Below, piece by piece: positions 1 through 39,560 of a stretch of DNA of 64,000 bases. How positions within the stretch are numbered: the first letter of the stretch is position 1; each line of letters opens with the position of its first letter. Source of the stretch: Haplodiscus bocki (lineage: Eukaryota); the NCBI GenBank assembly GCA_965655095.1, contig OZ296648.1, positions 56,668,001 to 56,732,000 of the forward strand, in the 5' to 3' direction. The translations under genes were made by a program, and so were the position numbers. The notes beneath the pieces were generated by a model that was not told the DNA's origin, made no database searches, and saw only the letters and a list, made by a program, of their open reading frames with translations.

Positions 1-680
1 TAATTAGTACTACATATCAAATTCAAGACGACAAAGATCCATCAATCATAAAAACAGTACACCGTAACCATTTGGTTGAATATTACCCTAAAGAAGAATC
101 GCTTTCAGCTATTATTAAGGAACATGTACCGCATGACCAACAAAATGATAACGATTTTTTTGAACTGTTCTTGGATCAAAGAATTGGGAAATTGAACAGT
201 TTTACTGAACAACCCACAGAGGACACCACTTCATTCCCAATACGACCATTATCTTCAACTCCGGCAATCCTTTCACATAAACGTGACAGTCTCACCAGCA
301 GTGACTCAGGAGTTGGCTCAGCTCAAGTTTTTTCGCCAACCCTCCCGTCACTCCTGAACAACCACCACAACTTCCACAGGAGACGGCGACTCAACAGCCG
401 TCAACTAAGGCTCCAACCAGACCACTTACTGCAATACAACAATTTCTGCGGAACAGTCGAAAGTCCAAAGCGAGAGATCCAAGGTACGTCAGAACTCAGC
501 CACAAGATCCTAATTCTCAATTGGCTCTTCGTACCCTCACTCGCCAGCGTTATACACTCTAACAGACAACAATTTGTTGTTGCTCAGCAATCGCCTAAAT
601 TCTCTCTTTTTTTTTTTTTAGAAAAATCACTACCTACTTACCTACTTTTTCATTCATTGTTTTTAGTACAAGATGCCTAA
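1..680 (+). pseudogene. pol: pol 3' end: integrase C-terminal (GPY/F-SH3-like) region plus low-complexity tail
   Basis: Translation TTYQIQDDKDPSIIKTVHRNHLVEYYPKEE matches the Y.I...VH.N.L..Y end of Gypsy integrases, followed by an S/P/T-rich tail. Confidence 0.75.
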
Positions 681-1053
681 TTGTCACAAATTCTACCCTA
701 ACTCTCAGTGGACGGTTACCCACTGTTGGCCCGACCTGGCTTTTGACAAAGTGCTATTAACTAAACTTTACTGGAGTTATTCAACACAAATAGTCCGTGT
801 GTGTTTCACACCTCTTCTGAAACCTACACTTAAACGGGATCTCAAGCGCAAAAGTAACTTTCAAATCAACTTTACCTCGCCTGCTATGCTAAGACTTTAC
901 GAACTTTTGTGTTACCATTCTCTTGAACATTTAGATCCAATTATGGACGAATTTCTTACTTTTGTTCAATCTACACTATCTTCACTTTATTGTTTTCCAG
1001 CAATGTCAGCCGTTTTACCCGACGCAGCAGATGGCACTTTCAACCATCCTTGA
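673..1053 (+). CDS. accessory ORF of unknown function (126 aa)
   Basis: ATG-initiated open ORF immediately after pol; no motif recognised. Confidence 0.4.
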   Translation: MPNCHKFYPNSQWTVTHCWPDLAFDKVLLTKLYWSYSTQIVRVCFTPLLKPTLKRDLKRKSNFQINFTSPAMLRLYELLCYHSLEHLDPIMDEFLTFVQSTLSSLYCFPAMSAVLPDAADGTFNHP

Positions 1054-2181
1054 ACTTTACAATGTTTTCTTCACACAAACTTTGGAATGTGAAGTCCCAA
1101 AACAAGTGAATACTTCCCAGGCAGAGGATTGGTAAAAACGTAATAAGAACCAAACCAACGGTGGAGGATAACCTCGCCGGCAGGAGTTGCTTAATCAGGC
1201 ACAGGAAGCCCCGGCCTCCACCAGGGACCTCACGCGCGCCCGGAAGACAGCTTGTGGCCAAATGTCCATAGCCAGAGCAAACTCCTCCCTCTGCTCCATC
1301 GTGAGATCAAGCCACCCGGCGAGGATTGCCCGCAGTTCGAACAATAGCACCTCACTGAACTCGGACAAGACCATCGCTTTCCAGTTTTCTCCATAGAAAC
1401 GGACCAGGAAGCTCCGGAACATCGCCAACACCGGGGCTTCTTGAACTGGTGCTTCGTCATTGCCCCGATGATACCTCATGAAGGCTCTCCAACTTTCTAA
1501 TCAAAAGATGGTGGGCTAGCCGAAGATATACAGGGAGCAGCCAGACGAACCTTCCGCCGTGGAGTGGAAGAGCGGGAACTCCGGGAGAGGGTCAATCCCG
1601 TCCCAACGTACCACCTCCACGACAACTTCAGGGGGTTTGCCCATCCTATAACAACACAGGAAGAAAGAAATGGAATAACATCCACAGCACCTAGACGACA
1701 AATGTTACCTCCATGTTTACCAAAATTGAGTTCTTGTTTTCAATCCATCAATTCATCACTTCATTGTCAACTGCAGTTACTCCCTACCCGCAAACACTTT
1801 CACTATTTTTCCCAGGAAGACCCTGCTGTGACAAAGCACAGCAGATGGAAGAAAGAATGAAAGAAAGGAAGGAAGATGAAATTATGTTGCCTGATTCCGT
1901 TTATTAGTTTTGCATGAATCCGCTTACATTTAAATCGCCTAAATTATTTGAATAAATTTATTTAATTAAACTTATTTTTAGTAAATGTCCTAAATTATTA
2001 ATTATTCATTCTTTGGAAAGTCCAACACTTGGTTTTCATTGAGACATCGTTCTCAGATGGGCTGTGGACTCAACGGCACGGAAACTACTCAGAAGAAACA
2101 GCTCAACTCAACTGATCTACAATTCAGCAACTGACAACGAAAACTGTTAATAGACAGGCATTTGGGATGTTTTCTAGTTAG

Positions 2182-2403
2182 ATGACAATCATATTCTTCA
2201 AAGTCAACGGAGACACCTTTATTCTCAGAAAAAAAACCTATGACTCAACTACGAAGCTTTTTGTTGTAAAAACAGAAGCGGTTGAAGCTGGAATACAAAC
2301 GATCTTCAAGTGCTTGCAAGGATCAGAACATTATTCCTCTGTAGACGGTCTTTACAAAAACCCTCCACCAACAGAAAAAAAAAGCCAGAAACGAATTTTT
2401 TAA
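2182..2403 (+). CDS. small accessory ORF, paralogue copy A (73 aa)
   Basis: MTIIFFKVNGDTFILRKKTYDSTTKLFVVKTEAV...FKCLQGSEHY...YKNPPP aligns end-to-end with the next ORF. Confidence 0.6.
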   Translation: MTIIFFKVNGDTFILRKKTYDSTTKLFVVKTEAVEAGIQTIFKCLQGSEHYSSVDGLYKNPPPTEKKSQKRIF

Positions 2404-2420
2404 ACGGCTACAGAGATCAA

Positions 2421-2644
2421 ATGACCACAATTTTTTTGAAACTAATAACGATTCGTACCTTCTTGAGCGCTTAACTTATAATTCAGAAACTATTGGTTTT
2501 ACAGTATTGACAGAAAGAGTTGGTGATTGGGAAAAAGTTAACTTCAAGTGCCCCGAAGAGTCAGAGCACTACTTTTTCTTTAAACGCTTTTACTTCAATC
2601 CGCCACCAGAAAACATAAAGAGTAAAAACCAAAATTTTGAGTAA
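2421..2644 (+). pseudogene. small accessory ORF, paralogue copy B (one-base frameshift in a T run)
   Basis: Adding one T at 2431-2437 gives MTTIFFETNNDSYLLERLTYNSETIGFTVLTERV...FKCPEESEHY...YFNPPPENIKSKNQNFE*. Confidence 0.6.
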
Positions 2645-2651
2645 AAAAATC

Positions 2652-2906
2652 ATGTCGTACGAGCTTAACTTGAAGTGTATTTGGCAGCATCCGACAACTG
2701 GAAACCATCTGGAGATAACCAAAATTGTTTGGGCAGAAGTTGAAAAGCCAATTATAATAGCAGTCAGAAGCGTAAGACAAGCTCAGCCCGGAACTTGGAA
2801 AATACATATCAAACAAGACACGGAAAACATGATCAACTTCTTGTCGTCTCCGGTAGAATTCACCAAGTTTCCCTTCTTTGCTAAATCTCACCCACTGCAA
2901 GAATAA
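2652..2906 (+). CDS. accessory ORF of unknown function
   Basis: ATG 7 nt after the paralogue B stop; MSYELNLKCIWQHPTTGNHLEITKIVW... Confidence 0.45.
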   Translation: MSYELNLKCIWQHPTTGNHLEITKIVWAEVEKPIIIAVRSVRQAQPGTWKIHIKQDTENMINFLSSPVEFTKFPFFAKSHPLQE

Positions 2907-3265
2907 CTGGTGAAAGAACTCATTCCTTATTGCCAGTCACTGACCCTCAGCACTGGACAATCCAGCTCGAAACGACCTAAGACTAGTTTATAGAGCTTCA
3001 ACTCAGGTTAGAAAAGCCCAATTGGCGCTTTTTTGACGAACCGGTTATAGCCCGGTTTCCCTTTTTGACAATCGATTCTAGTCCGACGTCCTTTATAAAA
3101 AGCTCGGCGTTGTTTTGCAGTAGTGGAGGAACTGCTATAAACGTTTTGCGCCCGCCTTGTCCTATTGCCCACAAAGCTGCCGGTTTGATATCGCGGCTTA
3201 CATTTTTACAGTTCATTTTTCTTAGCTACCCTCTAAAGATGGGATTTCCGCTACGTAAATTAGCG

Positions 3266-5399
3266 ATGAAGCTATTTTTTTCAAATCCTCGCGCTTACTG
3301 TCAAGGTGGTTCTCAATATAACTCCAGAGGAAGACCAGTTTGCTCCAGCTCTGAAAGTAGCTCATTTTGACTGCAGTGAGATGACTGAAAAAACTCTTTA
3401 CGCCATAAATCAGGTAATGCCATGGCATATTACGCCTGAAAAAACAGAGAGGTTAAAGTTGTGCACTACACCAACTATTTCAGAAGGGAACTAAAAGCTA
3501 CAAAATGCTGAGTACAACACCAACGAGAAAATTAACATTGCGGACACCATGATCATGGCAGCACTGATCATACTTTTGCAGGGATTACAAGTGACATTGT
3601 TATCTCTCCAGAACAATGCCGAAACCTAGTGAAGTGAAAAGACAATACCTTGCTTGGTGATTCGATTAGTTTTGGTTTCGACACAAAGAACCCCATCGTA
3701 AAAGCCTCTGGTGACCCAGCGATGACTACCAGAAGGAATGTCTCGGCAAAGGTTGGATCACTCGTGACACCTTCCTCCCTCACATGCAGACAAGAACTTT
3801 GAAAGCTACGCTAGAAAACGGAAAACTTCTATCTGATAAAGGGTTTAATTTTACCATGCGCTCTAGAAGAATTGGGATGTGAAACTACCTCGTTCGAACC
3901 CTATGCTTACATTTGGGACTATCTTGACAACTGTGCGATCTCAATTCTTTGAACTGAGGAAGTTGATATGGTAAAGCAAGAAAATAAGTATTAGGTTATC
4001 ATTGGAGCCAATTCCAGCTCTAAATTTGTATTTGAACTCAAGAACAACCCTGAGAAACAATGCGGAAAGCCAAAATCTATTTACTCTACAAACTATGATT
4101 CACTTTATATGGACCTTTTCAGCGAAGGTTTTTACATCGACACCGGGAGAAACCTGGGTCGTGATCAAAACACAGCAACAAAGATCCTACAGTATTTGAA
4201 ACCAAAAGAGAAAGGAGATTTCGATCAACTTTATGCCCATAACCCCAAGTTAGAAGGAACACAAAAGTCACAAACAGCGGACCCCGAGAACTATCTGAAC
4301 ATCGATTACGAAATGCACCTCGGGACGAATATTGATTATCTATTCTTTCAGAGCTCGCGATTAGTCCAAGCGACGGAAATACAGTCATTGCAAAACCAAT
4401 GTGAACAGGAATGTACCCAAATCTTGACTAATCTCTTGTTTGCCCTTGAAAACCCTCGTTTGGCCGGTTACATGCTAAGTGATAACCGATCAAAGATTCT
4501 AGAAACGGATGGATGCGTAGCATAGCTATACCATTGCCCGAAAGTTCACTGGCCTCTTTACACAATGAACCAGTGTTACGATAAAAATCCCAATCTTTAC
4601 AGGGGACAAATTCAATTTGTTGACCCTGTGACTCGACAAAACTATCCTCATGCTACGGCTCAAAACTGTTCCGATCGCATCAAGAACCTGTTCCATCTCG
4701 ACATGGATCAGGAAGATTCTTGGTACACTCTAACACCTGGTATTGTACATCAAAACAAGGCTGCCATGATTGGACCTCAAGATATTAACCCAGTTGCTTC
4801 TCACGCCTTAACCGGATCATAGGATTCGGGCATGTATTCCCGCAACGAGCTTGAAGGATTGTGGGATAGTATCCTTATCAATGCCGCTTCGAGGACGGCA
4901 CCTAAAAAGATTTCACAAAATATTATTGTCTACACAACTGCCCAAGAAGGAACAGGCAGTTCTCATTAAATTACCAAACAAAACGAGTTCTTTGTGGATA
5001 AGATGATTTCGCCAGGGTATTTTAACGATCAATTCTTTGACACATTTGGGCCGGTCGTTTATATACTTGAGCATTGTGGAATTTATTTCTCCGTCTTTTT
5101 GTTCATCAGACTTATAATTGATGTGGTAGTTATAGTCGTGCGTTACATGGAAATAGATAACTGGTTCCACTCTAGGGTTTGCTAAGACCCTTCTGAGTGC
5201 TTAGTACAATATTTTCTTAACAAGTGTCTCAACTTCCATGTATAACCCACGTGCTCCGGCGCTAACTGCTGTTAAACACATGGAGGTAGGTCCATGTGTC
5301 GAAAACGATATGCATGAGGTAAAAGAGGATGCGAAAAAGAAAGAAGAGCACCTCTACCCTGAAATGAGCACGATAACACTATCATTGTCATCTGTCTAA
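3266..5399 (+). pseudogene. env: envelope / class III-like viral fusion glycoprotein (chuvirus G / herpes gB-like), multiply frameshifted
   Basis: Signal-peptide-like start MKLFF/QILALTVKVVL; AHFDCSEMTEKTLYAINQV; HCGHHDH; LPCALEELGCETTS..YAYIWDYLDNC; QNQCEQECTQILTNLLFALENPRLAGY; YHCPKVH..MNQCYDK..YRGQIQFVDPVTRQ..QNC; C-terminal TM helix CGIYFSVFLFIRLIIDVVVIVV. The Cys pattern resembles chuvirus-type glycoproteins. Confidence 0.8.
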
Positions 5400-5464
5400 C
5401 AATCTGTTTTCCGTTTATTGATTTTTAGTGTTTAGATTTTTAATCAAAGGAGAGCGACGATTCA

Positions 5465-5854
5465 TTGCCTGTCTTAACCGATCTGAAATTCGACTTGCTT
5501 ACGTTGATCCCATCAACTTTGAGACAGCCAATTGAACCTGTACTACCTTTTCTCTCGCCTCCTTCAATCATTTTTTCGTCAAACCCTGCTTCACTGGACG
5601 CACAATCAGACACCGTCTCAACAACGCAGGGATTATTGTCATTTTGCTCTGCTCCTCCTTTCACCACTGACCATGTACAACCTTCAACCATTTCCACTTC
5701 TGTTGGCAAAGCTACATCCCATAGCTCACGCGCACGATCTAAACAAAAACAAAAACTACGCAATTTGCAGCGACCGGCCGGCAAAACTTACAATAACGGA
5801 AATCGACTTACAATTGCTCGAAAACACAAAAGGGAACACTGGCGAGAGCTGTGA
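5465..5854 (+). CDS. Pro/Ser/Thr-rich, basic-tailed accessory ORF of unknown function
   Basis: 129-codon open frame between env and the TRAF-like gene. Confidence 0.4.
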   Translation: MPVLTDLKFDLLTLIPSTLRQPIEPVLPFLSPPSIIFSSNPASLDAQSDTVSTTQGLLSFCSAPPFTTDHVQPSTISTSVGKATSHSSRARSKQKQKLRNLQRPAGKTYNNGNRLTIARKHKREHWREL

Positions 5855-6092
5855 AATGCCCTTGTTTCAAACTTCATCTGCACTACAGGCTGAGACCGCA
5901 ATATTCTTCCTGGGAAAAACTGTTCTGAGATACCCAACGACAGGAGTTTACCATTCAGAACACGCTCCTGCTTTCTCAGCGATTTGTTGTTCCGCTGCGG
6001 GCTTCAACTGCTAATTCAAAGCCATAACTTAAATTCTGTTTTTTTTTAATCTTAATTTTGCTTAAACGTTTGAATTTAATATTTTCTTAAAG

Positions 6093-7022
6093 ATGAGCCA
6101 TTTATTTCCTGGATCCTCTGAACTACTTGAGGAACCTACTTCGCCTGCTCAAGCACCTGCGACAGATGGAAATCCAATACTATCATCTGAAGGGGTTATG
6201 TATTCCACTCTACTACAGTTGCGCGCGCACGTGGAGAAAAATTAGAACGCACAACCCTCAAGCAACCTATTACAACGTCTCGAAAGAGACTTCGCTCTTC
6301 TACAGCCCCAGATTGAGTTACTTGAACAACCAACAACAAGTAAGTTCTCCTCAGTAAAGTCACTTGAAAAAAAAGTAGAGCCTTAGAGAAGCGTTTTTCC
6401 ACCGAAACGTGCAGATGTAGTTCGAAGCTCAACTCCTTACAACATGAGCTGTCAAACATGGGTGATCAAATTTGCCAGTTTGAGCACAGCAATTCAAATT
6501 TCATTTTGTGGAAGATCACCTCTATACAACTGCTATTTGAGCCCGCCAGATTATGGTATCTGAAGCCAGGACGGGAAAATGCCCCAAACCACTCATTTTC
6601 GCAGCCCTATTGCTTGCTCCTAAGCATATGGCTACAACTTTTATTTGAATTCACACCCCTATGAATTTGCCGCTGCTATCGGAACACGGGCTTCTATCTC
6701 TCTGTCTCTCTCTGTGTCTGCTGGGGAAATTGATGACATTCTGTCTTGGTCCATCTCAAAGACAATCCAGATCAAAGTGCGTGACCGACTGAACCCTCTT
6801 AATACCTGCAGCCAGAGAATCGAGCCCAATGAAATAACTAGACCAACCTCAGTTGTATTTTCTACAGTACCAACGGTTCGATACCTTTACTTCTCTCCAC
6901 ATTCAAAACTCTTCAATGAAACTGATGGCTACCTGTATAACGACACTACGTATCTCGATATTTCCTTTTTTGACCCGTCAATACCATCTACCCAGTCTTT
7001 TCTTCTTTTTCCTTTTCCGTAG
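6093..7022 (+). pseudogene. TRAF-like protein (coiled coil + MATH/TRAF-C domain), intronless, frameshifted
   Basis: Heptad-like LQRLERDFALLQPQIELLEQ and LQHELSNMGDQICQFE, then SNFILWKI, HFRSPI..AYGYNFYLNSHPY, IGTRASISL, AGEIDDILSWSISKTIQIKVRDRL, RPTS, YFSPHSKL..DGYLYNDTTYLDISF: the TRAF MATH motif series (IWKI, SPPF-GYK, GTHLS, GEYD-L-WPF, RP, YI-DD-IFI) in order. Confidence 0.8.
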
Positions 7023-7063: not shown

Positions 7064-8425
7064 TGTCGCGTTAGCCGTAACGCTAAACAGTGCTAGTTCT
7101 AAATTTAGAAATGACATAATAGAAGTAATAATAATAATTTACCGTTTGAAGGGATAGCTGTTGGAGAGCGGTAATAAAGTTGGAATTGCACATTTTGAAA
7201 CCTCAAATTTTTGTTGACATGCCTCAGACGGAAATTAACGAAGCTTTTCCATTTGTTACCCCCGCTCTCGGAGTTTGATTTTGTTGCTTCCCGAACGGCA
7301 CACTTTGCTTCTTAAGAGTTCATTTTTTGACTCCTTTTGGAGGATCACCATATTTGGTGCTCATTGGCGCACGGCCTACCGTAGTTGGTCATAACCTTGA
7401 AAAGTACGAGAGCTCGGCAAAATTGAGCGACCGGCCGCCAACAGTAAAAATCATAACTTTCCTGATCAATTACCGCCGACTACCAACTCCAAAAGCAAAA
7501 ACTACTAAATTCTCCACTTTCTTCTTCTAAGATTTTGGAAACTTAGAAATTCGAAACCGCCACAGAACTTCTGCTTTCTCGATATTGGAAACTTTTATAT
7601 CTTTGGAAAAGAGACAATTTTTCAAAGAAACTCAATTATTCCAACAGTGGGAAAAGGAATTGACTATTGGCAAAAACCTATCAACTATAAACCTATTTTC
7701 ATCATTTGGAATAAAACGAATTGTTAATATCTAAAATAACCAACCCTGGTAGAGCACAGCTCACCAGATGAACTTAGTTAATTAAAATCTGGTCCGTCGG
7801 CAGATCCTCTGAAAAAGAGTTGCCACGGAAATTGCTCTGAACAAGAGCTCATTGAAACTTCCAGATACATAAAAGAAATCGCTCGGTGGTCCTTCCATTT
7901 GGGGTTTTGCCTTTTTTGACTGCCTCCATTGAAGTGAAAGGATGCTGAGTCTTAGATAAAATTCTTTACTAACCCAGTTTCGATCAGAATCAGGTTCATT
8001 GGTTATCCGATGGTAATGGCCTGAACCTAAGAGAAATCGCACGGTTGCTACGCCATAAAACAAGTTACCGTGTCTTAGTTACTAACCCAACACTTTTGGT
8101 CGGAACTGAACCAGCGGTCAATAAAACCCCTAGATTTTACTCTACGGGTTGACAACTGTGTACTGGCCTAAGAGAACTCGCTAGGTTGATTCGTTACGCG
8201 AACTATCTAGTCTTAGCTCAATTTGACTTAGAGGTTCATTTTGAAAATAAACTGTTTGAAAAGACGGATGTGTTTATTCTCCGGTCTAGCACAAACTTAA
8301 AACAAAATGATGGTGCTCGAAGGCAACTCTACTCCGACAAAGTTAGAAAAGATATTGCTTAATCTTACTGGAGCTACTATTAATTTCGTATTTCATTTTC
8401 GCGTCAATTAAAAGCGCGTGCAACA
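7064..8425 (+). repeat. candidate 3' LTR (~1.36 kb)
   Basis: Starts TGTCGCG after the PPT and ends GCGTGCAACA (imperfect terminal inverted repeat TGTyGC); AATAAA at 8120; no second copy in the window to confirm. Confidence 0.55.
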
Positions 8426-8429
8426 ATAT

Positions 8430-9140
8430 TCTCTTTGAATTTCAGCTGAAACTTTTAGACTTATTATTTTGGCATAAAATTTCTGGGTGTTGAAAAAATT
8501 TGATTGAACAGAGCTGAATGGTAAAGTGGCTAACGCTCTTACTTTGAATAATATTGGAATAGAGTGAAATTTGAACCAATTCTTCTGCGCTTAAAACAGT
8601 ACCGTCCCCCTGGTGAACTCTCTGCCAAGTTTGACAATACAAATTTTATATTCGAAGCCATAACTTTCCTAGTTTATAAATCTGCTTGCGTTGAATAAAT
8701 TCTTGATGAATTTTCTAACCACTCAATAGCAGTCGACTAAGTCCTTGCCAATGAGTTCACGCTCTATTTTGTTCACGCGGGCCAGCAAGGAAACTTTGAG
8801 GCTTAAGTTTGTTTAATCAATAACGGTAGCACACCAAGAAAGTGTCAAGTTTTTGTCTACATAAAACATGAACCGAAACCTAATCTACCACCCCGCGCGA
8901 CAGTTTGTTTTTTTTCAACTCGGGTTGTTTTTGGTGCTCCATTGATTGGACCGTGAGCCTGCAATTTTTCGTAATCGCAAAAATGGAAGATTTTGGTTTT
9001 TACTACCAGATCGTCTTCTCTTCTCTTCGTCTTTGAGATCCAACAATAGGATGCTTCTCAACGTACGGTATTGTTTTGCTTTTACTTTGGCACGTAGATG
9101 ACTTTCTGACTTGTTTCCGACATCAACCATCCTCTTCATT
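8430..9140 (-). pseudogene. highly decayed non-LTR RT fragment (probable continuation of the old element at 13092-15400)
   Basis: Weak RT-like remnants TNLSLKVSLLARVNKIERELIGKDLVDCY and ESYGF. Confidence 0.3.
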
Positions 9141-10154: not shown

Positions 10155-12984
10155 CTTATCAACAACTATTTCCCTACTAGTGAATATTCAAGGAATGACA
10201 CCTGAAAATAAACATGTTGACTTGCTAACTCTATTGCAACTTCGCAACCTTGATTAACTTTTCTTATCTGAGACATGATTGAGTCCTCTATTTGATGATG
10301 CTTTCTGTTCTATATTTGGAACTTTCTATGTGGTGACGAGAGCGGATCGCATTCAAGGTACTCATGGTAGTATTATTATTCTCTGTCGCCGTATCTCAGA
10401 CCTAAACATCTCCGAAATAATTATCGACAAGGATTATGATTTTCCTGTTGCTGCTACGGTACAAAATTCTCATGATTCCGTGGCTCTACTCATCCTTTTC
10501 TACCTACTTCCTGTCACAGGCTCCTATAGGATACTTTTCGACTTCTTCAGTAGTTGTTTGGTGGATGTTGTTCGGAAAGCTGAAAACTTCTCCCCGCCTG
10601 ACAAGTTCAACCTGTCCCTCATCGTGCTGGGCGACTTCAACTTTCCCGACTGAGATTGGTCATCTATGTTTAGCACTAACAAGCGTGAACTTGAGTTCCT
10701 GGAATATCTCAACTCTCTTGAATTACGACCTCCTATCACTACTTGGCAAACGCATCGCTGTGGAAATATTCTTGACAACATTGTGACTAATGACAACTTT
10801 ATCACTGGTTACTCTATTGATGATAGTAGCTTAAGTCACCACTCTTCCATCATTTTTATTTACTCTTTCGATTTTAACAAACCCTATCAATATCCAACTG
10901 AATATTCGTTCAAGGACCATACCGACACGGTGAACTTTCATAATTCCAGTGAAGAGTTCAGTTTTACTTCATATACTTCAGAAGCCAACGTGAACGAGGT
11001 TTATTCGTTCGTTGCATGGAGTCTAAACACTTGTTTTCCTTTCAAAAGGAAAGTTCGGAGGAACAAACTTTTTCATTACAGCTCACATACATTTCACTAT
11101 TAGAACAAGTTGAATACAGCTAGACGAAAGTACTCTAAAAACCACATTAGAAACAATCTTGATGGTCTTCAATCGTTACAAAGGGATTCTTTGGATTCTG
11201 TTGAGTTGGATAAGACTATCTACATCAATGGATCATCAACTTCCAGCCTCAATCAATGCTTCTTGTTTTTGCACAGTCTCAAAAACCCTTATTTACCGAA
11301 GCAAATGTTTCGTTCGCAGGAGAAATTACTTCACTCTGAAATTCCAACTGCATTCAACAAATGTTTTGCTGGAAATTTCGATTTTGATTCTTATGATGGA
11401 TCGATTCAACTTATGGTGCTCTGAAATTGGATTCTGTTTTAGATTTTGTCTCCAGCTCTTCTATTACACCTGAAATTATGAGATCTAAAGAGTCCACAGT
11501 CTCTTGATTTGATGGTTTTCCAATCAAATTACTTGTAAGAGCTGCAGCTCTGTTTGGAATAATCTTCTATCCTTTATTTTGTTCCATAATCTTCTGTAAA
11601 GTTTTCCCCTCCATATGGAAAGTTGCTCGGATAACTCTTCTTTTCAAATCAGGATCACGTAACAGTATAATGTGTTATCGTCCAATTAGTTTGCTGCCTA
11701 AGATCTCTCCCATTTTTCAGAAATTGCTTTTTTGTTTCCTTTTTTTGAACTTGAAATCGAAACTACATCCCAAGCAGTTTGGCTTTCAGTCTCATAAAAG
11801 TTCTGTTCGACAACTTAAAAACTATCTGGAACGTGTTTATCAAGAGAAATCAATAAATCGTTCTTCAGTTTATTTTGACTATGAAAAGGCCTTCGACAAG
11901 GTCCCTCATTCTATCCTGTTCAGAAAACTTAGTCTCTACCTTGCTTTTGGTTTTTGTTCGCTCTTTGAATCTTACCTTATGAATAGATATCATAATGTGC
12001 ATGTCAATCACTTCAGTTCGGATCTCATACCTTGCGTCAGTGCTGCTCTTCAGGGCTCTGTTTTTGGACAATTTTTTTTATGTTTGTTAATGATTTACCA
12101 TCTATCTTCTCGGACTGCATGGTGTGGCTGTTTGCTGATGATTTGAAACTCTTATTTTCCAACCTCATTTTCACGATGATCTTTGGCGACTTTATTCCTG
12201 GAATCTAGTAAATGGAATGATCGTAAACTCAGACAAAACCAAAAGTATTCACTTTACAGGTACCACTCAAAGAACATTTCCGGCTGACCTTCTACTTGAG
12301 AACGTGAATTCGCAAAAAGATTTGGGTGTGTATGTTGGATATGGTCTCAAATGGAACCATCACTTTACATAAAAACTGCACAACGCCCGTGAAAGCTTCT
12401 TTTCTCTGATGTCTAAAGTACTCTTCAACACCCCCTTTATTATAAAGTTGCAGCTGTACTATAGTAGGGTGTTATCAATTCTGCTTTATGGTTTCCCAGC
12501 TTGGTATGCCGACATTACATCTCTGAAGCGCCTTGAATCTTTTCAACAGTCCTGTTTCTCCTCAATTTTTGGACGCAAGCGATCTTACCAAGAGCACCTC
12601 AAACGATCACAGTTTCTGCCTATTTGTTATCACCTGGAGTACATTACATTCTCTTTCCACTGTCAACTTTTACATGATAAATACATTTTCAATTTTACTT
12701 CTTATTTAGTGTTTCAGGTACCCGAACGTCAACTCCGAGCTTCAATGACCAATATACTCCGCTATCTGAACCCAAAGCGTTATGAAAACGTTTCTTTTTT
12801 CGGTCGTGCTACCACCATGGCAAACTTCTTGTTCAGAAATAACATAATCGATGGTTTCAACAACTTCAACAAACATGCAGTCGAAGCCTATCTTCTGCAG
12901 AAAGAATTTAATCCTACGTTGTCTTGTTCAATTTTCATTTGTTGTACTTGCAGTCAATGTAATATCATGAAGAGTATTTGTTAA
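10155..12984 (+). pseudogene. LINE ORF2: apurinic-type endonuclease + reverse transcriptase
   Basis: LGDFNFPD, THRCGNILDNIVT, LSHH; YRPISLLPKIS, QFGFQ, YFDYEKAFDKVPH, QGSVFG, WLFADDLK; terminal CSIFICCTCSQC. Confidence 0.9.
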
Positions 12985-13011
12985 CGAAATTTGGATCTCG
13001 AAAGAGAATTA

Positions 13012-27919: not shown

Positions 27920-28558
27920 GTCCGTTTTTTAACCCGATGTTTGCCAATTGGGCTCGTGCAAAATCGATGTTGGCTCGTGTATTGCCAAGATTGCAGGAAT
28001 GGCCAAAATGGACACAATGGCCAAAATGGCCAGAATTGACAAAATGCCAAACCTGCTAAAAATGCCAAAAAATGCCAAATATGCCAGACATGCCAAATAT
28101 GTCAAAAATGCCAAAAATGCTGAAAATGCCGAAATTGCCGAAAATGCTAAAAATGTCAAAAAATGCCAAATATGTCAAAAATGCCAAAAATTCCAGAAAT
28201 GCCAAAAATTTCAAAAAATTCAAAAATTCAAAAATTCCAAGATTGCCGAGACTGAAATAGTAAGATATCTCAAAACGTCAAAGTTTGGGTCTTTTTCGAA
28301 AAAAAACTTGAGTTTTATTCAAAATCGAAAAAGATGGCAAATTTGCTGCAGAATGCATATCAAAAGGTTTTATTTCTTAAAAATGTCTTCCACATTGATT
28401 ATGCGGTTTTTCTGGCAAAAAAAAATCAAAGAACGTTGAACGTTGGAAAAATTAGACACTATGATGAAGAAAGAGTGTTTTTTCGGAAAAAGAACGTTTT
28501 CACTTTTTACAAAAATGGGAAGGCGCAAAATATGCCGGTGGTAGCCGACCGTCTTGTT
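27920..28558 (+). mobile_element. non-autonomous Helitron/Helentron-like repeat with internal minisatellite
   Basis: 3' imperfect GC hairpin GCCGGTGGTAGCCGAC followed by CTTGT|T; internal tandem repeat; 5' end uncertain. Confidence 0.4.
27981..28250. repeat. 9-bp minisatellite (consensus AATGCCAAA)
   Basis: About 30 degenerate units, seen directly. Confidence 0.9.
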
Positions 28559-30729: not shown

Positions 30730-33700
30730 CGATGTTTCAGGGATATGTAAAAAACTCAGGATTTCCTTGATGCGGGCAAAGCCCTCACCGGGTGATTCTT
30801 CGAAAGTGGGTATGCGGGCCTATTCTGCTGACGTGCTGCTTTCTCGGGGACGGGCTCATGTCAGTTTTCGTTGGTGAAGAGAATCCAGCTTTGTCTCCTG
30901 GTCGGCAGCTCTGGTGGCCTGTTGTCCATTGGTATTGATATCGGGAAACTTCCGTTGTTTCCTCCGTTTGTTGCTGGATGCGACAATACCTCTGTCTGTT
31001 TTTTCATAGAACTGCGATGTATTGCTTCCGTTTGGGTCCCTTGCTCATAGTTGATGTTTGAGAGACATCGATCGGCTTGTTCGGGAGTAGTCGGCTCGTT
31101 TCCTAGCGGAGAGCGTCAAAATAGTTGCTCATGAGCAATTTTTGCGGTCACACACTCGAAATGCTGTGCAATTGACTAGGAGCTGCAATGTGAGTGGATG
31201 AAGAGGTGAAGAATCTCCTTTGGTCGGTCGCATGGTTGGAGAACTTCTTTATACCCATGTATCAGCTACTCCTACTATTGGCTGTTAGGTCAACTGTTAC
31301 TAATCATCTGGGACGTCTGAAACTCTCCTAATGTTCATACTTCAAGTCGTTTGCTGTTCAGACCTCGGGAAATGTGTGTTCACATCTTTTCAACAAGTTC
31401 AGTCCTGTGGAATCATGATGAGTCAATCTTCAATCTCAGGCATCGAGAAGTGCTTGAATTCTCGTGTAAACTGGTCTTGCTACTGAAACCGATGTGTCTT
31501 GTTCTGTTTCTACTAATGCGTGTTTTACGCATCGGTTTGTTTCAACTGTCCAAATGAAGAAGAAGTGCTCACAGTTTTTTATCTCGGACGGATAGAAAAC
31601 GAGGTTATTCATCATTCTCTCCCACATCCATTCTGCTGTTGTTCTATGTACAGCTAATCGTTTGTCATTTTTCTCCTGTTGAGAGTTTTTGTGGTTGCCT
31701 ACTGCAGAATTGCTTGTGAGGTGAAACAATTGTAGCTGATGTTTTTCCGATGTGCCGTAGATTCAACTAATATACAGCTTGTTCAGGTAACTTACTGCAT
31801 TACAGAATGTACATGTGATAAATGCAGTTTTCCGGTGTCTTTAGTCTTTTCATGTGCGGTTCTACCACTAAAATTCAATCAAATAGCTCCAAGTAGGTTT
31901 GCCTTTCTAGTAAATATTGGACTATTGGCTTTGATTTGACAAAACTGCTAAGTTATGAAATGCTTAGCAATACTTGGTTTTACATAGTGCATCAATTTTC
32001 AAATTTTTTAAAGTCGCCTTCAAATCTGGCAGAAAGGATGTGATATGACATAGTTGCATTTATACCTCTGAGCATTATTTTGGCTACTGAACTTGCATCA
32101 AGATTTTGTGTACAATAGCAACCTAGTACATACAGAACATAGAAGTAGTGTTAGGGAATATTAGATAACTCAGTATTTCCCTCATGCGGTCATGAAACTC
32201 ACCAGGGGCTTTTTGAAAGCGGAAGTGCGGGCCCGTTAAGCTGAAGTTCTTGTCTATTGAAGGGCTTAAAAATGTTTTTTGTTGGTGAGGCAGATGCAGT
32301 TTTGAGAGCTGGCAGGTTGCTCTGGAGGCCTCTTGTCCTCCATTGAAACCGGCATCGTAAACAGTCGATTCTGTTTTTTCGGTGTTTGCTGAATGTGAAA
32401 ACATCGCTTTCTCTCTTTCCTTAATTCAGCAATGCTGCTGCATCGGTTTTGGTTGTTCGTTTGTGGTTGGTGTGTTAGATACAACGTTCATCTTTCTCGG
32501 GAGTAGTCGGCTGTTCGTGACCTTGCTGAGCGCGGCAAAATATTTTTTCACTAACATTTGTTATGTTTTCACCATTCGAGTGCTGGGAGACTAGATTGGA
32601 GCTGCGGTGTGATTGGATGGAAATTGGACAAATCTCCTTCCATCCCGTTATGCGCTGACGAGTGCTGATTTCGATCGTGTTTGAGTTTGTTAATTTGTTG
32701 AGTTGGCTGCCGCAAAGTTTCCTCCCGTGCATATTCCTCTTGTTTTGGTGTCGATAGTCAGATTCCAACTTTTTTCCGCTTATTCGCCGGCGTTGCTCGC
32801 AAGATAGGGAAAGATTACTTCCTGCGGTCAAAATCATGCTCTCTTGCATCGTTATCGGCGATCGGAAATGAAGTGACGAGTGTTCGGTCTGGCATTACAC
32901 AGGTCTTTTTCAATCATCGCAATACAGGTCTTTTTGAATCAATTGTCAATTTTTGTGGGTAGAGAGCAACCAAATATATTGTTTCCATGTAGCATCCTCT
33001 GCTGGTGAAAATCGGCGAGCTGAGCAATGAAAAAACGGTGAACAGGCTACTTTAAACGGCCGTGCTTTTGTGTGTGGCCTTACTGCTGCTCTTGACCGAA
33101 TGTACCTTTACTTGCTTGTTTCACAGTTGCGTAATGTTTAATGTCGGATCCTACGAGCAATGGCCTTTCTTGAGTTGATCATCCTGCTTCTTCTTCTGAC
33201 TTGAGTGGTAAGTATGCCTTCTGTTCATTTACATTTCCTTGTCGTTAAACACTGTAGGCATCTAAATCACAATTTGTGTCATGTGTTTATGGTGTTGCCT
33301 GTTTTCAGGCTGTTTGGTATTCAGGAAAATCCTGAAGGCCGTTGTCTGCTGTTGTTTTCGGGAGGACAACATGGCTTTGCTAGTTCTCCGACGAGGTCAG
33401 AGGAGTCTACTCCCGAACCTTTTGTGTATGGCGCTGTGCTACCAAAATGGTCTCCTACGCCGGCGAAGTTTGCTGTTGCACTGTAGAGGGGCTTACCTTG
33501 TGATTTCTTTGACGGTCTATCTCAACAAGTTGTTGGAGACTATGGCAGTGACGTTGCTTTGGGCGGTGTAGTTGTCCTTGGCCTTGAGGGTGCGCTGTTT
33601 TGCTCGTTCTCCGCTAAACTGTGCGGTCGCCGCAGTCTGTGTCCAGCCCTGTGGAGTCAATTGCTGATGCTGTAGAGTCTGGGTCGTGAGCATCGTCTGT

Positions 33701-36700
33701 TGTGCACATCAGCGGCGGAAAAGTTGTTGTTGTTCCCGTGGGTGAGCCCGAGAGTGAACAATTTGACGAGCCGATAGGGTCAGTGGAGGGATCTGTGTGC
33801 TCCGTGTCCACAGAGTCCAATGTGGTCCGTTCTGATGCCAACTTCTTTCTCGTTAGTGAGTCCTTTTTGTTCATCCGTGAATGCGCCTAGGTGGCTTTTC
33901 AGGCTGATGGTTGGTTTACTAAAAATACTAAGATCAGTTGACACTTCTGTTTATATGTATAAGACGGAGTTTGATTTCGCCATCTTCTGCTAAAAAGAAA
34001 AACAACATTGAAAAAAAGTGTTTCGGGGCCCTTCTATTTTTTCCCACCTTTAACGATGTGCAGTTGGGGAGAATTTTACGCGCTCTCCTAAACGTTCTGG
34101 TATGGTTGATCAGTGTGGGAGCGGCGGGTACCTCAACACTCGCTTTAGCTTGTCATCGGTTTGTTACTTGTGAGTTGGGTGGTGACATCGTTTTTTGTCG
34201 TCGGCGGGCTGACAGTTCCGGACGCATTTGCATTCGATACTGCATCTTGTCGGCTCATCGGTTGATGGGTGTCTCTTCTGTTCATCCTGGCTGTGGGCTG
34301 CGCATCAATTGCACTCTATGATAAGACGATTGTTTGTTTTTTTTTCTGAATGTTTCAGTTTAGGTCCTAGTTGAGCCCGTTTTTGTAGTAAGACGGCATT
34401 CAGCTGATTTTGTTTGTTTTTGGTAGCTTTTCTTTATGTATACATGCAAACATTTGAGACAGAAATGAAAGAAATTGTGAGAACATGCTTGCGCATGTTC
34501 TGAAGATGGTTGTAGGAAAACAGATCCTTTCCGATCTCTCGGTTCAGCTGAGTCAGTCTAGTAGGGATGTCCTTGTCCGGATGGTTTACCATGTATGATT
34601 TTTTTCGTTCACAGGTGGAGTTTCGATCACGTTGCGTCAGAGCTGGTTCGCTTGTGATGCTCTGGCGTCGTTGTGCCATGGTTCCTACGTCTCCATCGTT
34701 TTGTCGATGGCTATGTGCGATCTCATCTGTGCGCCAGGGATCTGAGGGTATCAAGTTGAGGGCGAGCAAACGTTTGTCGGTCTCTGTCAGAGTGATGGCC
34801 ATATGGACCGTGACAACAGTTACCATTTGTCTTTTAGGTTGTAGCTGTTGGACAAAATTAGTAACGTGTCCTCCCGGTTGTGATGAACTGAGGGAGTCTG
34901 CTGTTGGAAAACTTGCAATGCCCCTCTTGGAGAGTCAATCTGAAGCCTCTGTGAAAGAAGCTGTTGAACTGGAGAAGGCTATAAAATCCCTTTGGTACAT
35001 TTTTGTTGGCAATTCAGATGAAATCAACAGTTCATGTCGGAAACGGATCTATATACTGGTGGAGCGGTTTCGTAGTGGTGGAGTCTTCACTACAATGGCG
35101 CCCATGTGGGATACTCCCCCGCACTATCTTCCTCATACCACTGCTGACTAGGAACTGACGATGAGCGGTGAAATGGAGTGGGTCAGCATTAGATTTTGTT
35201 TTTTTTTGCATGGAGGTGTTTGTTTTGAAGTTCACCAGGCACCAGGGATTTTACGTTGTTCTACGTCTGTGTTTTTGTACATGTGAATGCGTCTCTTTTG
35301 CACCATCTTGTTCCTACATCCCCTTTTGTCTCTTTTAGTCCGTTGTCTTTTTCCGGCCTCAATTCATGTCTGTCGTGTGAGGGGTCATCGAGAGTGGCGT
35401 CGCTCGTTACGGTTTGCATGTGCCTGTCAGAGGTGGTGTGGCGTGTCTCTACTTGTCGACTTGTCAACTGTGGAGGGCGATGATGTGGTGACGCAGATTC
35501 TTGTCGTGTTCAAACGTGAACCTAGATGCTAGGAGTTGTTTTCGGTAAGAATCTTGATGTCGCATAGCTCCCGTGCCGTTTTTCTATCCCGTGAAGTGTT
35601 GGCTTATATGTTGTGTGGGATGGTTGAATTGGTGTCAAAAAAAGCACATCAATTATATTTTCATGTCACTCATTTTTTTAGCAATGAAGATAACCGGAAA
35701 GTGGTGTTGGTTTGTGGGCTACGCTCTTTTAGGTGCTAGGAGTTGTTGGCGCTGATGGACTACTTGTTTGGTGGTCTGCAGCCTTCAACTTCTCTCGCGT
35801 GGTTCAGTTGCTGTTCACATCTGCTAGATGTTATCACCCGATTTCCCCGCAGATGGGGTCTTACTCTGTGTTAGCCAGTTTTTAAAAAGACAACGTTTGA
35901 GGCAGGTCGTTGGGGGAGGAAATCTTGCGCGATTCATTCGTGCGGAACAAATTTATTAAAGACATGACAAGAAGAAAAGCGAATGAAGGAACAGCAGAAG
36001 AGTCAAGTGTGAGTTCTGGGTGGTTATTGAGCTAGGAAGTTTTCAACGTGTGTTTGGTGCTAGTAGGGTATTCAACGTGTTATTCAGTGCTCTTATAATC
36101 ATATATTTTGAAATTTGTTTCAGAATTTTCTTCGTGGGAATGTTCAGATTTGTTTGTTTGACCTCATCCTCAGTGAGTTGCTTGCCGTTTGAAGTAAGGT
36201 AGCCGAAGTTCTTCGAAATAGTCAGGAGCGGCTTGAGGATGTGTAGATGACAACACGGGAGATTGACTTTCATGACCCAGAGTTGTTGCGGCCACGAATA
36301 CTGGAGATGAAATTTCAATCCAGTTACTGTTTTTAGGACTGTTTTTGTCGGTTGGAGTGTCGGGTTATTTGGCTGCGAGGCAAACGGACCTTTTCCGATG
36401 TGTTTCTTTTCGGGTCACCATTCAGATAGAAATTGGTGTGTGTTGTTCTTAATAAGTGAGATTCTGTGTTTTACTGTCCGCCAGCTGTTGTCACAGCTTT
36501 CTGGATATCTGTGATTGTATGGGCTTCAAGCTGTGGCAGACTGTCTCTTGCTGTCACGCAGTGATTGCTCATAACAGTGATTTTGACAGATTGTCGGGAT
36601 TCTACTCATTTGTAGCATAGTTCGAGCTCACCGAGGATGTTGTGGTTGTGTCAGATGAACGGATCAGTTCCTTTTTGGTAGCTCTGTTGACGTTTCGCGG

Positions 36701-39560
36701 GAATTTGGTTGATGATTTCGATTTTTCGTTCGGAATGGTTTCTGGCGAATGCTTCGATTTCTCCAAGTCGGTTGACTGCAATCTTGTGACGAGGCAAGCA
36801 TTGATTGGAAAAAATTCCTGTTCGATGCCGACTTTTCTTTCTCTGGTGTTTCTGCTCCGGATTTGGACGTACTGCTTTTGCGTAGTGTCCAGGTTTGTGC
36901 AATTCTACGTGCAAACGGCTGAATTTCGGAACTTCTGGAGAAAAAGTTGCCAGTGCACTTTGTGACAGCTGTGCCAGCCCGTTGAAAGGAGGAGCTGGAT
37001 TTTGTGAAGGTGGAGCTGTACAACGTAGTGCGTCTTTGGCTGAGGAAGGAGAGACTGGAGCCCGGTCTTCGCGCTTTTTCTTGACTGCTGTGAACCTTGC
37101 GTGACAACTCAATGCCTCTACACAAATTATGCGCTTTTGATCTTGTGGCTGTGAACAAGGGGACCGTCAGGAACTGCTTGTTGTCTGCACAGATTTACTT
37201 GGGTAGTCATTCGGAACCCATGTACGATGTTTTGATTGACAGGGTGGTTTCTGCGTCAAGAAGACCTGTCAGTCACGTGCCTGATTCGAATCATGCTAAC
37301 CCTTGATTGCTAACTGTGGGTGGAGCTGGAAGCTGAATCTTGCGTGGAACACTTAGCCGCCTGGAGGCCATCCTTCCAATCAACTGTTTCAAACGACGAC
37401 GTAGATGTGGATCGGCCTCCCAGTATCGGAATTCTCTGTCTGCTGTCGTTCGGTGGTGCGGGGTTTTTGAACACTGTGCATTGACTGCCGTTTGGAGTTT
37501 GGTAGGTGTCTTTATAAGCTTGGTGTACTGTTGGTCAAAAAACAAGCAAATCAATTTCAATCTCCACACTTGGTTTTCTGGCGGCGGAGTAGAGGTGTGT
37601 CGGGCAATGATTTATGCTGAATTGCTTTCCTGTGGAATTCTTGACGTTATAAGCAAAGGAAGTCCGCTCTTTGGGCTGTTATTTTGACTTGATGATGGAC
37701 CGCGAGGTTGTCTGCAGCACATTTCTCATCTCCGCAAAATGTTTTGACGTGTAAAGAAGGAAAGTTTACTTGAATTTTCTTGGTGGCGTAATTGTTGAAC
37801 TCTTTGTAATAGTGTTTGCATTTTTAATTAGTGTACTTTTTCTTGATGTCTGTCAGTTGATTTGATAAGCTTGTTTCTTGTTTGTGTTGCTTTTGACAGG
37901 CTGCGTACTAGTTTTTTGAATCTCCGGTAAAATGGGATTTGGACGGACAGAAAACATTTAAAAAACGAAAAACAACATAACAATAGATTAACTCGTACCT
38001 AGTGGCAAAAGTTTACCTTGGACAGCAAACTGGTACAAAAAAAGAAAACTAAGAAGAAGAAAAACAGGTTGCGGCCTTGGTGGTTGATTCAAAAAAAAGA
38101 TTCTGAAATTTCTTGTTTCTGTGGAAATGGATGAGGTGGTGAGTAATGAGGGAAACAAGTATATCGAAAAATAAAAAGTTGTAAGAACATATAAGATCAC
38201 ATGTTGCGAAAAAGATGCCTTCAGTTGCTAAACTTAGATTTTGATCCACTGAAACTGAACCTTTTTGGTTGCTGTTGGAACTAACCTCTAATTTTGCAGT
38301 CTTTTTAGGCTTTTAGATTTATGTTCAAGCTCCTTTTGTTAGAAAAACTCAGCTGGTTCCGGCATCTAATTCACTGAAAAAATGCTTTTCATTTAATGCA
38401 AGTTTTGATGGAAAGCACATTTTTTAGTTTAGCATTAAGAGTAGTTGCATTTGTCGGCCAATGTAAACCTATGCAATTGCATTTTTTAGTGGTGGAGATA
38501 GACCGAGACTTTTTTGGTTTGGCAATGTCTTTTTGCTCTCTGGTGTTAGCGATAGTGCTTTTACTTGTAATCTCAAACCTTGTTCTATAACTTTTGAACA
38601 AACTGAATTGTTTAAATGAAGTAGTCGGAAAACTGATGTTTTCCCGTACGTGACTTTCTGTTGTCGGTACTGACTAAGGAAGTGCTGCTTTGGTACGGAT
38701 GTTTTCCAGTGTGCTTCTGACACAGGTGTCCGGTTTGTCTTGAGGCTCCTGATGCAAGCAGTCGTTTTGTCTGTTGTGTCTGTGGCTTCAGTGATTAAAT
38801 TGTTGTCTCATTTGTGCCTTGGCACTCTCAATTTGATTTACCAGACAGTCACGAAAAAGTATCGGTGCCGGGTTTGCTCTCAAATTGTATCGGTTTGATT
38901 TTGTTTTCGATGGTCTGTCGCTTTCAGTCTGTGGGTTGGTTTCTTTTCTTTTTGAAGATCGTTCCGTTTCATTCCATTTATCCCTTACATGTGAATCAGC
39001 AGGGCTGTCTTTTGTGTTAGTTATGGGTGCTGGCAGGAATTGATTATAGGACACCCGTTCTTCTTTTGGTCCATCAATTTCCATCGGTATATGTTGAGAC
39101 CGGGCAGACGTCAGTTTTTGCCTTCCGAGCGGCGTGTCGGGTGTGACTGCTGTTCTTCAGGCAACAACTTCTGGGACGTAGCCGTCGAAAGATGTCGGTG
39201 TTTCGTTTCCGCGGATGGTCTCCGCTGTTTCCTCCTCGAGTCTGTTTTGTTTTGCGTTGTCCATTAGGGGTGGTAGGTTTTCATCAAAACTGTCTGTGTC
39301 CTCGGTGGCTTCTCTGTCAGGATACAGTTCCTTTTGATTCACTCCGATGACATCGATTTTGATGTGAGGTACAAAGTAGTCGCGTTTAGTGAGCACATTG
39401 GTTTTTGTGTGAATGGTGCAATTACAACTGAATTGTACCTTCCCCACTTTGTAGGGTCCTCGCCAGTAGAAAGAGTAAAATTTTGGTCGAAACTCTCGTA
39501 TTCAAACATTTCAATCAGTAAAAGTAAGAGGTTGTTTACTCTGGAATACCAGCGAGACAT
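30730..39560 (-). mobile_element. second Gypsy-like LTR element remnant: pol 3' end plus long downstream region
   Basis: Integrase tail at the right end; consistent strand skew (A/C-rich minus strand) and broken ORFs down to the gap; no LTR found. Confidence 0.45.
38788..39560 (-). pseudogene. pol: Gypsy integrase C-terminal (GPY/F) region and tail
   Basis: LYWRGPYKVGKV, FVPHIKIDVI..ELYPD, terminal RYNLRANPAP. Confidence 0.7.

Follow-up and report, generated by a model that had tools for sequence, protein, structure and literature searches.

The Envelope Pseudogene

The window, the whole stretch of 64,000 nucleotides analyzed here, carries on its forward strand a pseudogene (3239..5399, +) for an envelope (env) protein predicted to be a class III fusion glycoprotein of the gB/chuvirus type, recognized by its motifs, by a match to the Pfam family PF24664 and by comparison with intact copies of the gene. 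A preliminary description had placed the gene at 3266..5399. Comparison with intact natural copies confirms its end, the stop codon at 5397-5399, and moves its start nine codons upstream, to the equivalent of window position 3239. All motifs named in that description are found in env, spread over three frames: FDC at 3366, HCGHHDH at 3536, QCEQECTQILTNLL (the QCE.E...IL.N.L series) at 4397 and the C..V...CY...P..Y...F..P.TR...C series at about 4532-4670, and a hydrophobic stretch at about 5060-5150 corresponds to the transmembrane (TM) helix that it proposed. Its motif spacings were only approximate: the literal pattern for the last series returns zero matches, yet the series can be read. A six-frame search of the 64-kb window finds HCG.HDH and QCE.E...IL.N.L once each and FDC nine times, so that FDC by itself carries no weight. 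An unbroken piece of 98 aa (4526-4819) matches PF24664 at E 1.6e-9 with 36.7 bits, the cut-off of the family being 27 bits; a 176-aa piece (3995-4522), searched alone, has no Pfam match.

The reading frame is interrupted by nine premature stops (3509, 3533, 3635, 3950, 3992, 4523, 4820, 4967, and 5202) and by five frameshifts (near 3276, 3441, 3716, 3838, and 5158). Short-read contigs, from runs that are possibly the source of the assembly, agree with 3386-3596 with 0-1 differences and no gaps. Since these contigs carry the same sequence, assembly error is rejected for the three breaks that lie within 3386-3596.

The Carrier Element

The env gene lies in an LTR element of 16.4 kb. The 3′ LTR (7064..8902, +), delimited by comparison of the LTR pair, is 1839 nt long, with TG...CA ends and a 7-nt terminal inverted repeat, and is 98.7% identical to the 5′ LTR, which lies 7.5 kb upstream of the window (L013:2011-3849). 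At the left edge of the window is the broken 3′ end of pol, the C-terminal part of the integrase (3..562, +), assigned by a weak PF22938 match, by tblastn and by rve and Integrase_p58_C matches on the frame that runs into the window. The remaining gag-pol and the 5′ LTR occupy G000:C1:56660511-56668000 (locus L013), and a tblastn comparison against this locus and the window finds both gag and pol broken. The LTR pair and the gag-pol context bear out the earlier proposal that env is carried by an LTR element. The element is laid out as LTR, primer-site-like sequence, gag, pol, small and antisense ORFs, env, ORF X, TRAF-like ORF, and LTR. The primer-site-like sequence that accompanies the LTRs is conserved, and 4-nt target duplications found at other copies are degraded at the window copy.

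The type of element differs from what had been suggested, which was an association with Pao. In other copies, pol has the domain order protease, macrodomain, RT, RNase H, integrase, and Pfam matches include Retrotrans_gag, RT_RNaseH, Integrase_H2C2, rve and SH3_Tf2-1. The best solved-structure match of pol is Ty3 Gag-Pol (E 2e-57). The Pfam families typical of Pao elements are Peptidase_A17, DUF1758/1759 and DUF5641, and Pao-specific Pfam domains are absent at E 0.05 from five gag/pol frames of four copies. Because gypsy-type domains are present, Pao-type domains are absent and Ty3 is the best match, the carrier is, on these criteria, a Ty3/gypsy LTR retrotransposon and not a Pao element.

The Predicted Fold of Env

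An intact natural env copy of 724 aa matches PF24664 (Monjiviricetes_fusion) at E 1.2e-41. Its hydropathy peaks at residues 7-30, a predicted signal peptide, and at 608-642, a predicted TM segment. It has four N-glycosylation sequons, and the furin motif R-x-K/R-R is absent from the copy scanned. Each of the 14 ectodomain cysteines is conserved in at least 91% of those aligned relatives whose sequence spans it. A sequence search of the PDB with intact env returns zero matches at E 10.

Comparisons of predicted structure point to class III. In the Atlas, the top matches are Monjiviricetes_fusion (0.96) and then gB and rhabdovirus G (0.94-0.95), with a recognition score below the tool’s threshold. 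In the full-length model (pLDDT 70.9, pTM 0.40), beta strands are long, one helix runs for 48 residues and the C-terminal part of the ectodomain is rich in beta structure. In a Foldseek search of the PDB with this model, every row listed is a herpesvirus gB (best E 9e-13, global TM 0.14-0.24). In a library of predicted viral structures, the best match is the glycoprotein of Tacheng tick virus 4 (E 3e-32), and the top matches are chu-, xinmo- and qin-related glycoproteins of 14-17% identity. Global TM-scores of the full-length model reach only 0.14-0.31 over the PDB and the viral library. A second structural alignment places domain IV of pseudorabies gB at Z 8.5 (rmsd 3.8 Å over 164 residues) and the fusion module of Mokola G at Z 7.7, middling values near the level (Z 7-9) that the alignment tool calls common, and identity of env to herpesvirus gB and rhabdovirus G is only 8-12%. 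The fusion module folded separately (pLDDT 87) gives TM 0.47-0.58 to the top chu/xinmovirus G rows and about 0.3 to gB.

The predicted models thus contain a nested beta-hairpin fusion module, a central helix and a crown like domain IV of gB. Class I (F-type) proteins are absent among the structural matches listed, an absence that alone would not exclude F proteins; a check by Foldseek and Pfam for a class I protein or a non-fusogen as best match returned class III proteins as the best matches. Together, PF24664, the Atlas, Foldseek, the viral library and the fusion-module model agree with the earlier assignment to a class III, gB-like fusogen whose closest viral counterpart is the chuvirus-type G, and env is accordingly predicted to be a class III fusion glycoprotein related to that type. 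It shares with the glycoproteins of Jingchuvirales and Xinmoviridae the PF24664 family, the predicted fold and the domain order. It differs from them in its low identity (at most 18% to any viral G in structural alignments) and in its setting, an element that uses reverse transcription and is flanked by neither an L nor an N gene. The putative fusion loops, at about residues 105-111 and 161-174, were assigned by topology, without superposition, and are mostly polar and His-rich, not aromatic. Position 109, in the first putative loop, is His in 22 of 37 aligned rows, and the hydrophobic residues W102, I112, W176 and I177 that flank the putative loops are conserved.

Copies of the Element and Selection on Env

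The 176-aa env piece retrieves 4179 candidates from the 1.5-Gb genome, and a subfamily with a 53%-identical env accounts for 7464 candidates in its own search, counts that are not to be taken as copy numbers. The 150 scored copies from the first search have 75-100% identity, about 44 of them with open frames of at least 700 aa (a hand count from the table), and the 64 scored from the second are 92-100% identical to their query. A further env subfamily is also seen, and env identity between subfamilies inside the genome spans 52-100%. Among ten further elements, the LTR pairs are 98-99.7% identical in the four with intact env and 90-96% identical in the six with broken env.

Two unusual arrangements were seen among the copies. 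At G000:C271:17108-51765 (L019 and L020), three env copies recur with an exact period of 17,065 nt, a head-to-tail array of the element. Another copy (L017:1937-5857) has lost gag and most of pol, with env and the TRAF-like ORF still open, between LTRs of 3.9 kb that are 99.7% identical and contain a 60-nt tandem repeat; it is likely a non-autonomous derivative.

Among ten intact env genes, dN/dS is 0.055-0.168 in the 21 of 45 pairs that are unsaturated. Purifying selection on env is strong by this measure, which speaks for a use to the element and not for membrane fusion as such. Combined with the intact copies, it suggests that the family may have been infectious in the past. Env might instead have been kept for a non-infectious role, either blocking receptors against other elements or viruses or moving particles within a cell or syncytium. 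The atypical polar loop tips would fit such a role, and solo chuvirus glycoproteins of mosquitoes have been suggested to compete for receptors (PMC7642597). This is nevertheless a quite improbable account, given that ectodomain, cysteines, TM segment and tail are all kept in every subfamily at dN/dS near 0.1 and that the gene sits in multicopy elements, not at a single domesticated locus.

Co-divergence and Origin of Env

Env identity correlates with that of RT (Spearman 0.91, 10 elements), integrase (0.89, 8 elements) and the MATH domain of the TRAF-like ORF (0.90, 12 elements), in pairs that are not independent, as they come from few related elements of about four subfamilies. Trees of env, RT, integrase and MATH, built from family members only, give the same main subfamilies. 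In one element, C1d, env is far more divergent than the integrase, and this env may have been swapped between subfamilies. Since env co-diverges with pol, it was likely acquired before the family radiated; the likely course is a single acquisition that preceded the division into subfamilies and drew on an old pool common to this env and the glycoproteins of Monjiviricetes.

Outside the family, 1592 cluster representatives match env at E ≤0.001, the full-length ones with 27-42% identity. The 20 distant relatives checked in the clusters include none with an informative name, and a profile search and a search with a single protein returned four proteins each, without a name or called hypothetical. 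Scans of IMG/VR with intact env, an alignment and a distant relative gave no confirmed relative, and phage records gave no env match. A metagenome scan with a single protein as query found a single match of 26 residues on a 1.5-kb contig without usable context. A tree of 31 ectodomain segments holds no viral rows and is silent on the direction of transfer.

A fairly recent capture of env from a chuvirus-like RNA virus of the host lineage, as proposed for the mosquito Pao element Anakin, is improbable on these comparisons. It would account for the chu-, xinmo- and qin-related G proteins being the best viral structural matches. It would also agree with two places in the genome that carry mononegaviral-type L fragments (PF00946), at G000:C7:5387420-5388190 (L065) and G000:C2:20698296-20699526 (L066), which gave three matches among seven candidates in an L-gene search; such viruses therefore did infect the lineage. 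Against recent capture, the viral matches, at 18% or less, are far more distant than the many relatives outside the family at 27-42% (some of which may themselves be viral), the subfamilies inside the genome are already widely diverged and env follows pol in that divergence. Neither L-gene locus has a match to gag, pol, env, ORF X, the antisense ORF or the TRAF ORF of this family, and no L gene lies beside the window element, whose env is probably not a viral fossil. Because the relatives outside the family are so much closer than any viral G, the sequence comparisons argue against a recent chuvirus origin and leave an old acquisition as the likely one.

Accessory Genes

Several accessory ORFs surround env. 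Directly after pol lies a small sense ORF of about 125 aa (673..1053, +), which has counterparts in three other copies and belongs to no known family. It is followed by an antisense ORF (1207..1680, -), which is broken here and encodes 150-235 aa in the other copies used for comparison; its C-terminal region is conserved at 25-28% identity across subfamilies, and it has no Pfam match. Three small tandem ORFs of 73-130 aa, partly broken, precede env (2182..2992, +), and other copies have two to four. The ORFs between pol and env are conserved, in a number that varies across subfamilies.

Downstream, between env and the TRAF-like ORF, is ORF X (5429..6015, +), a reading frame of about 160-210 aa that is broken here. 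In another copy it lies at L055:2411-2887. Its N-terminal half is of low complexity, its C-terminal region, about 70 residues, is basic and conserved, and it has neither a Pfam match nor a usable Atlas match. Its dN/dS is 0.18-0.61 in 13 of 36 pairs. ORF X has no ATG in several copies and is possibly spliced.

The last gene before the 3′ LTR is a TRAF-like ORF (6093..7022, +), also broken here, which was assigned by Pfam, a TRAF1 match and alignment. It combines a MATH/TRAF-C domain (PF21355, E 3e-17; TRAF1, E 1e-13) with a predicted coiled coil drawn from weak Pfam matches and the alignment. RING and zinc fingers are absent from both the TRAF-like ORF and ORF X; TRAF1 likewise has no N-terminal RING. 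A MATH domain follows env in all 12 other elements inspected, including the subfamily with a 52%-identical env, and the gene lies at L016:3336-4694, L043:4390-5316 and L055:2869-3636 in other copies. Its dN/dS, 0.11-0.43 in the 12 of 28 pairs that are unsaturated, places the gene under purifying selection. A genome search for MATH domains gave 2967 candidates, of which 150 were scored. The best-scoring matches in the genome, L058:3496-4689 (-) and L059:4802-5275, do not adjoin env; either host TRAF genes or other carriers could account for them, and they are a candidate source of the captured gene.

One further addition lies within pol. Between protease and RT, the frame L056:1168-6825 contains a macrodomain (frame residues about 351-477) that matches human OARD1/TARG1 at E 1e-23.

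Age of the Window Copy

Over 1908 sites the window env carries 196 private changes, distributed as 61/46/89 over the three codon positions and including 123 that are non-synonymous. Four intact env copies have 44-62 private changes each, mostly in third positions. Among the changes in the window env are 36 of T>C, 30 of C>T, 27 of A>G and 27 of G>A. APOBEC-like hypermutation of this copy was considered and rejected, as there is no G-to-A bias.

The LTR pair of the same copy, whose internal genes are heavily decayed, differs at only 24 of 1839 positions. This similarity would suit a young insertion, copied in trans from a template that was already broken, an explanation that is unlikely for three reasons. 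First, the outermost 120 nt at the two ends hold 16 of the 24 differences (p 1e-9), as a conversion tract would leave them. Second, the flanks of the element, TTTG and GTTT, show no clean 4-nt duplication of the kind found at young copies. Third, no sibling exceeds 85% identity in env among the best 40 of 2318 candidates, or 87% in the LTR among the best 40 of 1533. Because the differences cluster at the ends, the duplication is not clean and no close sibling is seen, the simplest reading is that the window copy is an old insertion that decayed in place and whose LTRs were later homogenized by gene conversion. Of six other old LTR pairs, five show near-identical tracts as well, judged by eye from bins. 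Gene conversion between LTRs has been described in plants (PMC7251063), and dating by LTR pairs can understate age in this genome.

A Model for the Family

The reading that best joins these results, to which we give a probability of about 0.8, is that the region is the decayed env of a high-copy Ty3/gypsy element whose intact copies encode a predicted class III fusogen that likely lets particles enter other cells. The steps may be pictured from what class III fusogens do in general, which is the basis for trimer formation, acid triggering and delivery. The env protein would trimerize on particles that bud from somatic cells. Its trigger would then probably be endosomal acid, with no furin cleavage required; the putative fusion-loop tip is His-rich. 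Finally, it would deliver the core into germ cells, as in Drosophila, where gypsy reaches germ cells with an F-type Env. The RING-less TRAF protein would likely act as a decoy for host TRAF signaling because a TRAF domain without the ligase part would be expected to compete with host TRAFs.

A wider proposal is more tentative, and we regard it as possible but doubtful. In it, the family would be a recently active, retrovirus-like gypsy lineage of the ‘complex’ kind that spreads from cell to cell by an acid-gated class III fusogen, with His replacing the aromatic residues of the fusion loop, and that carries a counter-defense kit made up of the RING-less TRAF decoy, an ADP-ribose eraser and the small accessory proteins. 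Its env would belong to a large and mostly unsampled clade of retroelements, perhaps sister or donor to the chuvirus glycoproteins and not derived from them.

The family, which is large and has expanded recently, is a well-sampled case of a class III env together with a fixed accessory set, with several subfamilies, many intact copies and strong selection on env. It makes testable how gB-type envelopes of retroelements are triggered without the gH/gL of herpesviruses. It also makes testable which host pathways, such as TRAF signaling and ADP-ribosylation, act against retroelements in invertebrates.

Comparison with Known Elements

The pairing of gypsy elements with an env of the gB/chuvirus type is already known, and what differs here is the accessory cargo. 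Chary and Hayashi reported gB-type env genes on Ty3/gypsy elements, termed ‘ancient errantiviruses’, across animal phyla, found the chuvirus-like glycoprotein of mosquito Pao elements beside gypsy pol in 114 arthropod elements and favored an ancient acquisition (PMC13524379). The elements carrying an env of the HSV/gB type, as described there, resemble the present family in their gag-pol-env order, their LTRs and a gB-like ectodomain between signal peptide and TM segment, and also in a furin site that is dispensable, in being multicopy and in an env that diverges with pol (PMC13524379). Set against that description, the present family has a stretch of about 2.7 kb with accessory ORFs that separates pol from env, ORF X and a TRAF-like gene after env, a macrodomain in pol, a length of 16-17 kb and thousands of candidate copies (PMC13524379). 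The fusion loops are described as hydrophobic in those elements, whereas the putative loop tips of the present env are polar and His-rich (PMC13524379). The terms ‘traf’, ‘accessory’ and ‘macro’ are absent from the main text of the paper, and its first filter, as given there (a gap of ≤1 kb and a region of ≤10 kb), could miss elements of the present kind (PMC13524379).

Chuvirus-type glycoproteins on LTR elements have also been described by Dezordi et al., in the Pao-linked Anakin elements of mosquitoes (PMC7642597) and in the glycoprotein-derived endogenous elements of arthropods called Jg-EVEs (PMC10084718). In both accounts, as in the present family, the chuvirus-type glycoprotein is the third ORF of an LTR element; the present elements differ in that the carrier is Ty3/gypsy and the glycoprotein has long been resident and stands at a great distance from known chuviruses (PMC7642597; PMC10084718).

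For the TRAF-like gene, a literature search for TRAF in LTR elements gave the giant gypsy element Burro of planarians alone (PMC6431247). As described in that paper, Burro likewise has env homology, a MATH_TRAF_C domain and thousands of copies. Conversely, gag and pol flank the Burro env in one continuous frame, and that env was matched to the gypsy Env; the TRAF domain of Burro forms part of the polyprotein or sits in an ORF upstream, whereas the TRAF-like gene of the present family is downstream of a separate class III env (PMC6431247).

Other Features of the Window

A decayed LINE with endonuclease and RT matches adjoins the element at about 10280-12990 (+). Farther along, a degenerate array of 9-nt tandem repeats occupies 27978-28240. 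The region at about 31000-39000 has a raised GC content and strong opposite skews, and probably represents one more long element, which runs on the minus strand.
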